Shown piece after piece: positions 45,748 through 45,972 of a stretch of DNA of 64,000 bases. Source of the DNA: Clostridia bacterium. Lineage in GTDB: Bacteria > Bacillota > Clostridia > TANB77 > CAG-508. Within the stretch, counting starts at the first letter, position 1. Each line of letters starts with the position of its first letter. The position numbers and the translations under genes are program-made. The notes beneath the pieces were generated by a model, which ran no database searches, was not told the origin of the DNA, and saw only the letters and a program-made list of their open reading frames with translations. The DNA lies in the NCBI GenBank assembly GCA_022797145.1, contig JAAWKA010000007.1, positions 1,589 to 65,588 on the forward strand. Direction: 5' to 3'.

Positions 45748-45972
45748 GTTACATAACTTTCTTGCGAAAGTATGTAACCCATTATGACACTTTCAAAACT
45801 TCGTTTTGGAAAGATGTCGTGGGCTCCTTGCGGAGGGCTCATAAATTATCTAATCTTGCGATAGATAATTTATGTTTGGCTTCGCCAAAGCAAAAGAATA
45901 TATTTAATATCATTCATATATTCTTTTGCTCATCTTAACAATTTATTTACATACCAAAAATAAATTGTTAAG
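45748..45972 (-). promoter_or_regulatory. Array of seven consecutive stem-loops upstream of relaxase 3 (candidate oriT/single-strand-origin region or structured leader RNA)
   Basis: Hairpins at 45748-45778, 45786-45818, 45824-45835, 45840-45874, 45875-45889, 45890-45929 and 45934-45972. Five loops read C-GCAA-G or C-GAA-G on the minus strand. Confidence 0.6.

Follow-up and report, generated by a model that had tools for sequence, protein, structure and literature searches.

Hairpins upstream of a tnpZ-like relaxase gene in a Clostridia genome: a probable MOBV1 origin of transfer with a possible single-strand-origin-like block

What do seven stem-loops, set back to back just ahead of a relaxase gene, do for the element that carries them? 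Within the 64,000 nucleotides of Clostridia DNA analyzed here (the window), a 225-nt stretch at 45748-45972 holds seven adjacent inverted repeats, H1-H7, which can be read directly from the sequence (Table 1). All seven hairpins named in the original prediction are present at their coordinates, both by direct reading and by folding. The lengths it gave for H1-H5 stand, and H6 and H7, described there as 13 perfect bp, are longer. Folding 45700-46000 as DNA recovers all seven on either strand. The minus strand reaches -60.3 kcal/mol compared with -24.5 +/- 3.9 for dinucleotide shuffles (z -9.25, with 0 of 100 shuffles as good) and the plus strand has a z of -10.5, so on both strands the folding energy lies far below that of shuffled sequence.

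The region also stands out from its surroundings. When the minus strand of the whole window was surveyed with DNA parameters as 570 tiles of 225 nt (background -13.0 +/- 6.0 kcal/mol), 45748-45972 was the most structured tile at -55.1 kcal/mol, and none of the 570 was as low. The runner-up among nonoverlapping tiles (28113, -39.9 kcal/mol) lies upstream of relaxase 1. A hairpin of the form ATAAATT...AATTTAT, similar to H4, is also found upstream of relaxase 1. The region upstream of relaxase 2, which an insertion sequence adjoins, shows no excess structure (z -0.18), and blastn detected no further copies of the hairpin region in the window. Beyond H7, homology to the closest relatives continues through noncoding DNA and extends to 46367-46413.

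Table 1. Hairpins, predicted transfer signals and genes of the element, in window positions
Feature	Position	Strand	Description
H1	45748-45778	minus	13 bp, one bulge; plus-strand loop TTGC; starts at the predicted nick
H2	45786-45818	minus	14 bp, two bulges; plus-strand loop TTC; predicted relaxase-binding hairpin
H3	45824-45835	minus	4 bp; plus-strand loop TTGC; minus strand CTCC-GCAA-GGAG; with CCCAC linker spans 45819-45835
H4	45840-45874	minus	15 bp, one bulge; plus-strand loop TTGC
H5	45875-45889	minus	6 bp; plus-strand loop TTC; sequence TTTGGCGAAGCCAAA, includes the GCGAAGC DNA mini-hairpin
H6	45890-45929	minus	outer stem of at least 14 perfect bp
H7	45934-45972; with T-run to 45985	plus	15 perfect bp, then plus-strand T-run (CTCTTTTTGTTT)
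Predicted nick (nic)	45777-45778	minus	5'-...GGG/TTA-3', G 45778 / T 45777; by analogy with mapped sites
Predicted 8-nt nick-proximal recognition sequence	45778-45785	minus	ATAATGGG in the window
Sigma-70-like promoter candidate (candidate tnpZ promoter)	45769-45796	minus	TTGAAA-16-CATACT, 9 of 12 consensus matches; overlaps the nick region
tnpZ ribosome-binding site	45706-45714	minus	GAAAGGAAA; direct read; 5 nt before TTG
tnpZ-like MOBV1 relaxase gene (relaxase 3)	44402-45700	minus	432 aa, TTG start; Mob_Pre PF01076; reads as intact
tnpW remnant	44281-44412	minus	first 44 of 89 aa; tblastn with TnpW of relative L001
tnpV, same element	48269-48631	minus	Pfam TnpV PF14198, 1.2e-32; 75% identical to L001 TnpV
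Conserved noncoding DNA	45973-46413		accompanies the module in closest relatives; no ORF of at least 40 aa; fold z -3.8

The hairpins stop 47 nt ahead of the TTG start of the Mob_Pre gene and lie on its coding strand. Its product, relaxase 3, matches Pfam Mob_Pre PF01076 (2.8e-37) and the relaxase domain of MobM (PDB 4LVI; E 4.1e-12), with YSVAR...HNER aligned to the YMVAR...HNER of MobM. Both motifs that define MOBV relaxases, HxxR and HxDE...HxH (PMC3105389), are present in the translation, as HNER at residues 27-30 and as HADE...HYHLH. Full-length relatives in 80 loci are 72%-94% identical to it. The claim that this is the only intact relaxase in the window is borne out, relaxase 1 having 225 aa and relaxase 2 having 347 aa against the 432 aa of relaxase 3.

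The gene set of TnpV, TnpZ, TnpW and TnpX (a large serine recombinase) known from Tn4451/Tn4453 of Clostridium perfringens and C. difficile is common to the window family. Tn4451 gene order starts with tnpX. A relative on the plasmid pD610-HI2 carries the full set in the order TnpV-cargo-hairpins-TnpZ-TnpW-TnpX, with TnpX after TnpW, unlike the Tn4451 order; Tn4451 is compared here by gene set, not by hairpin sequence. Crellin and Rood reportedly identified a palindrome, RS_A, upstream of tnpZ as the Tn4451 oriT in 1998. TnpZ is described as a MOBV1 Mob/Pre protein, and Tn4451 as mobilized by IncP plasmids, in passages of two papers (PMC5704250, PMC12084326). The window does not hold the full tnpV-tnpZ-tnpW-tnpX set: no tnpX follows the truncated tnpW, and homology to all relatives ends at 44284/44285 (blastn against L016, L019, L026, L015, L025 and L044). 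The cargo consists of DUF3800 and unknown genes in the window, and of aac(6')-aph(2'') on enterobacterial plasmids. By its gene content, the window element is a decayed remnant of a Tn4451-family integrative mobilizable element. The earlier description of a plasmid-derived integrated element is to be corrected here, simple plasmid derivation giving way to a Tn4451-family integrative element. Having lost TnpX and part of TnpW, and with a substitution unique among 58 aligned sequences in the 8-mer next to the predicted nick, this copy is probably a fossil.

In the minimal MOBV1 oriT of pMV158, 8 nt separate the repeat IR1 from the nick downstream of it, and it is the coding strand that is transferred (PMC5863519); IR1 plus the 8 nt reads ACTTTATGAATATAAAGTATAGTGTG/, followed by TTATACTTTA (PMC3105389). 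The arrangement in the window is the same. As in pMV158 and pUB110 (MobM/Pre), the site immediately precedes the relaxase gene and is on its coding strand, the strand that is transferred in those plasmids, and the inverted repeat predicted to bind the relaxase stops 8 nt short of the predicted nick; H2 is the predicted equivalent of IR1/IR3. Between the end of the right arm of H2 (45786) and the predicted G/T are 8 nt (45785-45778), a spacing identical in all 14 regions folded; the distance of the H2 apex from the nick is -23 to -26 in 14/14. We infer the position of the nick from the sites mapped in pMV158 (TAGTGTG/TTA) and in IMESag-rpsI of Streptococcus agalactiae (TAGTGCG/TTA) (PMC5090054). 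At the place of the pattern TAGTGNG/TTA, 56 of 57 relatives have TAGTGGG/TTA, and the window has TAATGGG/TTA, which departs from the pattern by one mismatch. The nick region of 56/57 relatives reads ...GAAAGTGTC ATAGTGGG/TTACATACTTTC, and the window alone among the 58 aligned sequences has an A at 45782 (plus-strand t) within the 8-mer. The 8-mer ATAGTGGG is identical at seven of eight positions to ATAGTGTG of pMV158, with TTA after the nick in both, in a comparison with pMV158/pUB110 made by eye (the MAFFT alignment with pUB110 is 2 nt out of register).

The flanks can be compared as well. At the place of H3, pUB110 has CCTCGCAGAGCACAC, and the relatives have CTCGCAGAG or CTCGGAGAG, then CCCAC; H3 resembles the CTC-GCA-GAG mini-hairpin beside the pUB110 oriT, and in pMV158/pUB110 as in the window a conserved mini-hairpin of this type lies directly upstream of oriT. 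The pUB110 oriT (L083) is the same as that of pMV158 and is preceded by CCTCGCAGAGC. There are also differences. pMV158 has three overlapping repeats (IR1, IR2 and IR3), and so does the oriT of IMESag-rpsI, whereas H2 and H1 are separate without overlap; only a weak 6-bp GAAAGT/ACTTTC pairing spans the nick, and partly overlapping repeats of the IR1/IR2/IR3 type are absent around it. Furthermore, pMV158 and pUB110 are rolling-circle plasmids, and the window host is an integrative element. In this respect it is like IMESag-rpsI, an integrative mobilizable element with its oriT upstream of a MobV relaxase (PMC5090054). A full-text search on the core string of this oriT gave 688 chance matches, all in unrelated papers, and no printed description within the library searched.

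Across the alignment, H5-H3 is 95.9% identical and H2-nic-H1 is 93.4% identical, compared with 87%-88% for tnpZ. Pairing is kept in 94.1% of cells, as against 34%-45% when the partners are slid, and 21 pairs are altered on both sides, a number reached in 0 of 500 shuffles; the stems are thus conserved in homologous elements, the point on which the hairpins stood to fail. H1 is paired in 99.9% of cells, with three adjacent compensatory pairs in one relative (L073), and divergent relatives have a counterpart of different sequence at +9 to +13. H3 is 100% paired and the H4 stem is almost invariant. H6 is just 86% identical in sequence and keeps its pairing through compensatory changes (G:C to T:A twice, and A:T to T:A). 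At the H7 site a second group of relatives (L044, L001) has a hairpin of different sequence followed by a T-run, which is also on the plus strand.

The same holds at greater distance. A 17-nt core was found at 18 places in 13 of 401 Clostridia genomes (its reversed control, nowhere) and is invariant beside relaxases of 43%-55% identity. A TnpZ homologue of 43%-92% identity starts 73-82 nt downstream of eight of the 18 occurrences; the surrounding DNA available for the other ten holds no relaxase homologue. Eight core-motif sites have a single terminator-like hairpin upstream and nothing more. Upstream of the binding repeat, the 225-nt stretch is more stably folded than its shuffles in each of the 12 MOBV1-type oriT regions examined (z -3.1 to -11.0); segments of equal size within the relaxase genes, taken as controls, give z -2.4 to +1.6.

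Could the array nevertheless consist of chance palindromes of AT-rich DNA (about 31% G+C), or of decayed remains without function? The erosion of the window copy, with its cut TnpW, absent TnpX and unique 8-mer substitution, would agree with the latter. Against both stand the z-scores of -9 to -10 relative to dinucleotide shuffles, the lack of any equally folded tile in the window, covariation above that of all 500 shuffles, hairpin conservation above that of the adjacent gene, and a matching architecture beside relaxases only 35%-55% identical and at 50%-65% G+C. For the family this explanation is refuted; it survives solely in the sense that this copy no longer works.

Taken together, the MOBV1 relaxase, the succession of H2, 8 nt and predicted nick, and the invariant core identify the interval, very probably, as the oriT of a MOBV1 element. 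This upholds the oriT part of the proposed "oriT plus sso-like" region; the sso part is plausible and carries no known sso signature. H1 and H4 had been put forward as substrates for nicking assays, but the predicted nick falls between H2 and H1, not in the loop of H1 or H4. The hairpins would be structures of the nicked, transferred strand, which is the relaxase-coding (minus) strand. TnpZ would bind H2 and the following 8 nt, cleave at the base of H1 (5'-...GTGGG/TTA-3'), and guide the nicked strand to the recipient via the mating pore of a helper element. The strand would be rejoined by TnpZ once H3, H2 and the 8-mer arrive last.

The loops bear on which strand folds and in what form. In the window, the minus strand indeed reads C-GCAA-G in H1, H3 and H4 and C-GAA-G in H2 and H5, as first claimed. 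The GNRA tetraloop motif proposed from these letters fits GCAA in the window and not the relatives, where the two middle letters vary and what is retained is the C:G pair that closes the loop, with G as first and A as last letter. The common motif is a c-G(N)NA-g frame, not a fixed GCAA, and it reads so only on the would-be transferred strand. Among 58 aligned sequences, the tetraloop frame c-GNNA-g is found 44 times in H1 (plus three c-G(A)AA-g; GTTA 25, GCAA 11), 56 times in H3 (GCTA 29, GCAA 26) and 43 times in H4 (c-GCAA-g 23, c-GTAA-g 18), and the triloop c-GAA-g 45 times in H2 and 52 times in H5. H1-H5 all have the form of the DNA mini-hairpin loops d(c-GNA-g)/d(c-GNNA-g), with G first, A last and C:G closing; the c-CGCA-g loops of GC-rich relatives fall outside this frame. 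Loops of d(GNA) closed by C:G are exceptionally stable in DNA, and mini-hairpins of the GCGNAGC/GCGNNAGC type are very stable, nuclease-resistant and bind SSB poorly (reviewed in PMC13037366). GCTA and GTTA turn up among the relatives as often as GCAA does, and the loops accordingly fit DNA c-GNNA-g better than RNA GNRA. G:T wobbles occupy 73 cells on the relaxase-coding strand compared with 38 for A:C, a modest bias counted over sequences that are related to one another. From the loop frame and the wobbles we infer that folding in vivo takes place on the minus strand.

This folding strand is also the mRNA-sense strand, which leaves room for a function at the RNA level. The hairpins upstream of the core oriT could be a folded 5' leader in the tnpZ mRNA, or a small RNA that controls relaxase expression or mRNA stability could run on the plus strand from a promoter-like site in H5/H6 to H7 and its T-run. 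GCAA and GTAA are GNRA tetraloops, transcription from a plus-strand promoter-like TTGGCT-17-TATATT (45876-45904) to H7 and its T-run would yield about 70 nt of RNA, and both H7 hairpin variants have their T-run on that strand. Contigs from 4/4 RNA-library runs (three studies) cover the hairpins, one of them (X18, 972 nt) reaching from within tnpZ (45321) to 46282; DNA may be present in such libraries, strand, starts and transcription cannot be read from them, and uncovered bins and contig ends carry no weight. However, half of the relatives carry GCTA or GTTA, with a pyrimidine at loop position 3, and H2 and H5 have GAA triloops, which are DNA motifs and not RNA GNRA. The sole promoter-like site on the minus strand overlaps the predicted nick and is downstream of H2-H7, and promoter-scan matches in the region are at chance level (seven found, 6.3 expected). 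The mobM promoters of pMV158 are likewise embedded in its oriT (PMC5863519), so that a promoter-like site overlaps the oriT in pMV158 and window alike. The hairpins make no contact with the ribosome-binding site. The search of Rfam that had been suggested yielded no family for the hairpin region: 44000-47500 gave only chance microRNA and pseudoknot matches at E up to 10, and the whole window gave only two tRNAs at the gathering score. We consider an RNA-level element quite unlikely.

A further explanation keeps the function in DNA and dispenses with single-strand priming. The inverted repeats could act as duplex or cruciform, either as sites for accessory or regulatory proteins of the relaxosome or as terminators and insulators protecting oriT and tnpZ against transcription of the variable cargo. 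H3-H5 are more conserved than the relaxase gene, as protein recognition would give, and because it is their sequence that is conserved, and not pairing alone, recognition of duplex DNA by a protein is equally possible for them. On supercoiled DNA of pMV158, IR3 is extruded as a cruciform, and for self-regulation MobM binds IR2 in duplex form as well (PMC5863519). On the plus strand H7 resembles a terminator, and it coincides exactly with the edge of the variable cargo; breaks in homology fall there at 45928, 45955 or 45981. Several features argue the other way. H4, H6 and H7 are unrelated in sequence, and so indicate no common binding protein, and H6 and H7 keep pairing rather than sequence, with three covarying pairs in the former and a wholly replaced hairpin at the latter. 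The c-G(N)NA-g frame is strand-specific, which duplex binding leaves unexplained. Finally, no hairpin on the minus strand is followed by a T-run, so there is no stop for transcription entering tnpZ. A purely duplex role is unlikely on this evidence.

We return to the transferred strand, of which H4, H5, H6 and the sequence-variable H7 would occupy the last ~150 nt. In pMV158 and pUB110, ssoU lies beside oriT, in the same position as this accessory block, and initiates complementary-strand synthesis. A strongly folding block stands upstream of oriT in pUB110 (z -6.4) as in the window, at what we take to be the location of ssoU. The pUB110 block is one long imperfect hairpin with smaller ones, whereas that of the window is five short hairpins with GNA/GNNA loops, and the two have no detectable sequence similarity. 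Function of an sso is important for conjugative establishment in pMV158 and ICEBs1, and sso1 of ICEBs1 is a precedent for an integrated element with an sso that is important for stable acquisition after conjugation (PMC4595007). Like sso1, the types ssoA, ssoU, ssoT and ssoW, as well as ssoL, are folded, orientation-specific ssDNA segments at which synthesis of the second strand is initiated; known sso are one large imperfect hairpin, in contrast to the tandem short hairpins of the window, which have no RS_B or CS-6. The comparison with ssoA and ssoU, also suggested at the outset, gave neither an ssoA signature nor similarity to the ssoU region of pUB110. The RS_B sequence of ssoA, TTTATGCCGAGAAAA (PMC6395029), is absent from the region with up to three mismatches. 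CS-6 (TAGCGA) does not occur on the transferred strand, whose loops are GCAA, GCTA, GTAA, GTTA and GAA, and TAGCGG is found solely on the opposite strand of H3, in relatives. A blastn-short search of the region against pUB110 returned only chance words of 8-13 nt. IMESag-rpsI has a proposed lagging-strand origin within its mobilization module, of putative ssoA type, which lies downstream of the relaxase gene, unlike the block in the window (PMC5090054).

A closer likeness in loop type is found at other ssDNA priming sites. The origins of the ssDNA phages G4, St-1 and alpha3, where complementary-strand synthesis depends on a primase, and the ssiA of RSF1010 have adjacent ssDNA hairpins capped by GCGAAAGC, GCGTTAGC or CCGAAGG-type mini-hairpins, which bind SSB poorly (PMC13037366). 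H5 likewise has GCGAAGC, and H1, H3 and H4 have c-GNNA-g; the likeness is one of loop type, not of sequence homology, and these origins differ from the window element in host range and type of replicon. The accessory hairpins, with their very stable c-GNA-g/c-GNNA-g loops, would keep the strand end folded and free of SSB, and H4-H7 could then serve as a single-strand initiation signal for complementary-strand synthesis. A whole ssDNA promoter would need longer stems than the 15 bp at most found here. One formed by coaxially stacked H4/H5/H6 was considered by eye and rejected, as it supplies the -10 and the spacer duplex but misplaces the -35. The core-motif sites with a single upstream hairpin indicate that the accessory hairpins are dispensable for persistence of the core site. 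The position of H4-H7 and the DNA-type loops make an sso-like role in priming plausible for this block, and we put it forward tentatively. That H4-H7 represent a new type of sso, in which tandem short hairpins with ultra-stable mini-loops are joined to a MOBV1 oriT on its 3' side, is possible but somewhat doubtful; such an array would resist SSB and nucleases after transfer and recruit a priming enzyme. As a whole, the region is best explained, with moderate confidence, as the oriT of a Tn4451-family (MOBV1) integrative mobilizable element joined to an sso-like accessory block.

MOBV1 mobilizable elements are among the commonest integrated elements in gut Firmicutes. Close relatives of the module described here are found at 80 loci in genomes of gut Clostridia, and also on enterobacterial IncHI2 plasmids with aminoglycoside-resistance cargo. 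Describing the oriT at the level of sequence (binding hairpin, 8-mer and nick) provides a marker with which such elements, and "orphan" oriT that lack a relaxase, can be searched for. If the accessory hairpins are a priming signal, they would explain second-strand synthesis in very different hosts by an element with neither a primase of its own nor a known sso. And if a new type of sso is indeed present, Tn4451-family elements could establish across many families of Clostridia and even in Enterobacteriaceae, where the module occurs on IncHI2.

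All seven inverted repeats (H1–H7) of the original prediction are present in the sequence, with H6 and H7 longer than the 13 perfect base pairs ascribed to them (at least 14 in the outer stem of H6, 15 in H7). Folding of 45700–46000 as single-stranded DNA recovered every hairpin on the plus and on the minus strand, far beyond shuffled controls on both (minus strand, −60.3 kcal/mol, z = −9.25 against 100 dinucleotide shuffles at −24.5 ± 3.9; plus strand, z = −10.5). When the window was cut into 570 tiles of 225 nt and folded (mean −13.0 ± 6.0 kcal/mol), none was as low as the array at 45748–45972 (−55.1 kcal/mol). 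The second-best structured locus among the tiles is the DNA upstream of relaxase 1, one of two other, shorter relaxases in the window (relaxases 1 and 2).

The hairpin region is very probably the origin of transfer (oriT) of a Tn4451-family MOBV1 mobilisable element. Downstream of it lies a Mob_Pre relaxase gene (Pfam 2.8e-37), whose product aligns with the solved MobM relaxase domain (E = 4.1e-12) and in translation displays the HNER and HADE...HYHLH motifs (as defined in PMC3105389); TnpZ of Tn4451/Tn4453 has been grouped with MobM in the MOBV1 clade (PMC5704250, PMC12084326). A stretch of 306 nt spanning H1–H6 is 86.7% identical with five enterobacterial plasmids, namely four of IncHI2 size in Klebsiella, Citrobacter, Enterobacter and Salmonella and a second Salmonella record. 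On pD610-HI2 (NZ_MG288680, 7001–7300) the order is TnpV, aac(6')-aph(2''), hairpins, "plasmid recombination protein", TnpW and a DUF4368 serine recombinase, the same gene set as in the mobilisable transposons Tn4451/Tn4453. A Clostridia-type Tn4451-family module is found on enterobacterial IncHI2-size plasmids, and aac(6')-Ie/aph(2'')-Ia is its cargo on pD610-HI2, the sole plasmid of the five inspected for gene order. What the window holds of the element is a remnant: tnpW breaks off after its first 44 codons, no tnpX was found beyond it in the window, and homology to six relatives ends at 44284/44285.

The minimal oriT of pMV158 is described as an inverted repeat, IR1, plus 8 nt (ACTTTATGAATATAAAGT ATAGTGTG/ then TTATACTTTA in the published oligonucleotides; PMC3105389), with the nick 8 nt downstream of IR1, the coding strand as the transferred strand, and the mobM promoters inside oriT (PMC5863519). 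Mapped nick sites read TAGTGTG/TTA for MobM and TAGTGCG/TTA for MobSag (PMC5090054). On the relaxase (minus) strand here, 56 of 57 relatives carry the right arm of H2 (...GAAAGTGTC), then ATAGTGGG, then TTACATACTTTC; the exception at the nick-proximal 8-mer has ATAGGGG. The 8-mer of pMV158 shares seven of eight positions with that of the relatives, and the inverted repeat and G/TTA are also present, all of which upholds the oriT half of the earlier suggestion, with the nick predicted at the foot of H1. The window alone reads ATAATGGG at the 8-mer, with A (plus-strand t) at 45782 in place of the G seen in 56 of 57 relatives, the sole such change among 58 sequences. This substitution is in keeping with an element that lacks tnpX and most of tnpW, and the window copy is probably no longer functional.

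A 17-nt core string (arm, 8-mer and T) gave 18 matches in an even sample of 401 genomes of the class Clostridia (13 genomes with a match, in 13 genera), versus none for the reversed string. At eight matches a TnpZ homologue, 43%–92% identical to that of the window, begins 73–82 nt downstream; at the remaining ten no relaxase homologue was found in the locus DNA examined. In two Subdoligranulum plasmid records with relaxases 47% and 35% identical, the arrangement is kept with different stems and at ~60% G+C; it is also kept upstream of relaxase 1, where it reads ATAGGGGG/TTA. The apex of the binding repeat (H2 here) lies 23–26 nt before the nick in 14 of 14 folded regions, and a second apex 9–17 nt past it, the outlier at 17 being pUB110. 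In pUB110 the pMV158 oriT is preceded by CCTCGCAGAGC, a small hairpin and C-rich linker like H3-CCCAC here, and divergent relatives have CTCGCAGAG/CTCGGAGAG-CCCAC at that place.

Among genomes taken one per species, 80 loci were found with relaxases 72%–94% identical, nearly all in metagenome-assembled genomes of gut Clostridia. We aligned the 300 nt upstream of the gene from 82 loci wherever the flank sufficed; with seven exact-duplicate loci dropped and the window and pD610-HI2 added, 58 distinct sequences resulted. The seven-hairpin pairing holds in 94.1% of cells (34%–45% with partners slid by 1–3 columns), and 21 pairs are altered on both sides, a number equalled by 0 of 500 shuffles. Three pairs covary in H6 (G:C to T:A twice, A:T to T:A), H1 of one locus (L073) has three adjacent compensatory pairs, and about half of the sequences carry a hairpin of unrelated sequence in place of H7. 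Chance palindromes are excluded. Segment identities (see table) indicate that H1–H5 are more constrained than the protein gene and that H6 and H7 keep structure only. Hairpins serving in duplex DNA as protein binding sites or insulators would agree with the strong sequence conservation of H3–H5 and the border position of H7, but are unlikely given strand-specific loops and the covariation of H6 and H7 without sequence conservation.

Features of the window, with loops read on the relaxase strand (58 aligned sequences) and mean identity of segments to the window (81 loci with a match; segments under 80% cover excluded)
Feature	Position (strand)	Loop	Mean identity
Large serine recombinase	26249–28168		
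Second hairpin array, upstream of relaxase 1	28130–28430 (+)		
Relaxase 2 region	38845–41438		
IS3-type ORFs	40023–41438		
Orphan copy of relaxase 1 oriT core	43663–43795 (+)		
tnpZ (relaxase 3)	44402–45700 (−)		87–88% (n = 75–77)
Spacer preceding start codon			81.9% (n = 70)
H1	45748–45778	c-GTTA-g 25/58, c-GCAA-g 11, c-GCTA-g 4, others rarer	
Predicted nick	between 45778 and 45777 (−)		
H2	45786–45818	c-GAA-g 45/58	
H2-nick-H1			93.4% (n = 67)
H3	45824–45835	c-GCTA-g 29/58, c-GCAA-g 26/58	
H4	45840–45874	c-GCAA-g 23/58, c-GTAA-g 18/58	
H5	45875–45889	c-GAA-g 52/58	
H5-H3			95.9% (n = 64)
H6	45890–45929		86.2% (n = 63)
H7	45934–45972		
tnpV	48269–48631		

The identical loops reported earlier are true of the window, but their sequence is not fixed: the middle letters vary across the 58 sequences. 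What is conserved is the closing C:G pair, the initial G and the final A, with the middle letters free and often pyrimidine; GC-rich relatives often have c-CGCA-g loops, outside this frame. The frame belongs to one strand only, its complement being c-TNNC-g, and wobble pairs are biased toward the relaxase strand (G:T in 73 cells versus A:C in 38, 26 of these in one doubtful apical pair). Nakano et al. in 2002 reportedly selected d(c-GNNA-g) likewise as a stable DNA tetraloop class. The same frame recurs in d(GNA) closed by C:G, described as a very stable DNA loop (PMC3201870), and in "mini-hairpin DNA", GCGNAGC/GCGNNAGC (PMC13037366); GCGAAGC itself is present in H5. The purine that an RNA GNRA tetraloop requires at the third position is missing in half of the relatives. 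It is quite unlikely that the hairpins work at the RNA level, as a tnpZ mRNA leader or small RNA: Rfam scans of the region matched no family, the loop types are those of DNA, and the sole minus-strand promoter-like site overlies the nick. Such an RNA would nevertheless accord with the mRNA-sense strand being the folding strand, with GCAA and GTAA as GNRA loops, and with coverage of the hairpins by contigs, without strand or ends, from four of four RNA-library runs (three studies), one contig bridging 45321–46282, DNA carry-over being possible in each case. On the plus strand, a short RNA could also run from a promoter-like site in H5/H6 to H7 and its T-run.

Exact oriT cores with no relaxase gene in the locus DNA examined occur at position ~1516 of each of eight loci (L088, L093, L095, L098, L099, L100, L102 and L104). 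Their neighbors in the two loci inspected are ordinary genes (MgtE, FAD oxidoreductase), and a terminator-like hairpin stands ahead of the core in seven, not in L095. In five scanned loci Gut-1 RNA (RF01706), for which we know of no function, lies 150–220 nt past the core on the opposite strand (66 bits in L102 and 51.5 bits in L098 against a gathering score of 50; the other three below threshold). Being linked in this way to a MOBV1-type nick site, Gut-1 appears to be part of a relaxase-less mobilisable module. The orphan copy of the relaxase 1 core in the window (83% identity over 133 nt to 28317–28447) reads AGCCCCC, inverted repeat, ATAGGGGG/TTAGGACTT; it has no relaxase gene behind it and adjoins the truncated end of the studied element. 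The second dense array (z = −12.4), upstream of the truncated relaxase 1, follows the plan of the studied one, with an H4-like ATAAATT...AATTTAT hairpin, CTC-GCA-GAG, CCCCC, an inverted repeat, the nick-site motif and a further hairpin; it adjoins the large serine recombinase and a TnpV gene, and cargo near relaxase 1 comprises an AlwI-type restriction enzyme and a D12 methyltransferase. Directly upstream of relaxase 2 (347 aa, Mob_Pre 6.8e-45) lies an IS3-type insertion sequence (HTH_28, HTH_21, rve), and no excess structure was found at the place expected for an oriT of this relaxase (z = −0.18). Contigs from mouse-gut RNA libraries (runs X15–X17) join the studied core to unrelated sequence at 45744, 45818/45819 and 45837, which suggests that recombination at hairpin borders places the core (H1-nick-H2) in other surroundings.

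The accessory hairpins H4–H7 may tentatively be given a role like that of a single-strand origin (sso), although we hold this at somewhat less than even. In 12 of 12 MOBV1-type regions (the window, relaxase 1, pUB110, a relative of the second group, both Subdoligranulum records and six divergent genome loci), the 225-nt stretch preceding the binding repeat folds better than shuffles, with z from −3.1 to −11.0 (pUB110, −6.4) versus −2.4 to +1.6 for controls within relaxase genes. We take the block at the equivalent position in pMV158 and pUB110 to be ssoU. The suggestion of an sso-like region is plausible by position and by the DNA-type loops. A search of the hairpin region for RS_B and CS-6 of ssoA found neither, and comparison with pUB110 gave no sequence similarity there. 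The architecture also differs, the upstream block of pUB110 being one long imperfect hairpin. Counting further against an sso, the stems are too short to hold a complete ssDNA promoter, and orphan cores exist without the array.

The transferred strand would begin at the nick with H1 and tnpZ and finish H7-H6-H5-H4-H3-H2-8-mer; by that order H4–H7 would be the last ~150 nt to enter the recipient, and one primer made there would be enough for copying the entire strand. Deletion of ssoU from pMV158 is reported to lower transfer to Enterococcus 300–1000-fold, and stable acquisition of ICEBs1 to require an sso (PMC4595007). Mini-hairpin loops are described as resisting nucleases and binding SSB poorly, and as located at the G4, St-1/alpha3 and RSF1010 ssiA priming sites (PMC13037366). 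We found no description of the accessory array in the searchable literature; plausibly, these conserved DNA-type mini-hairpins represent a signal for single-strand initiation of a new kind.
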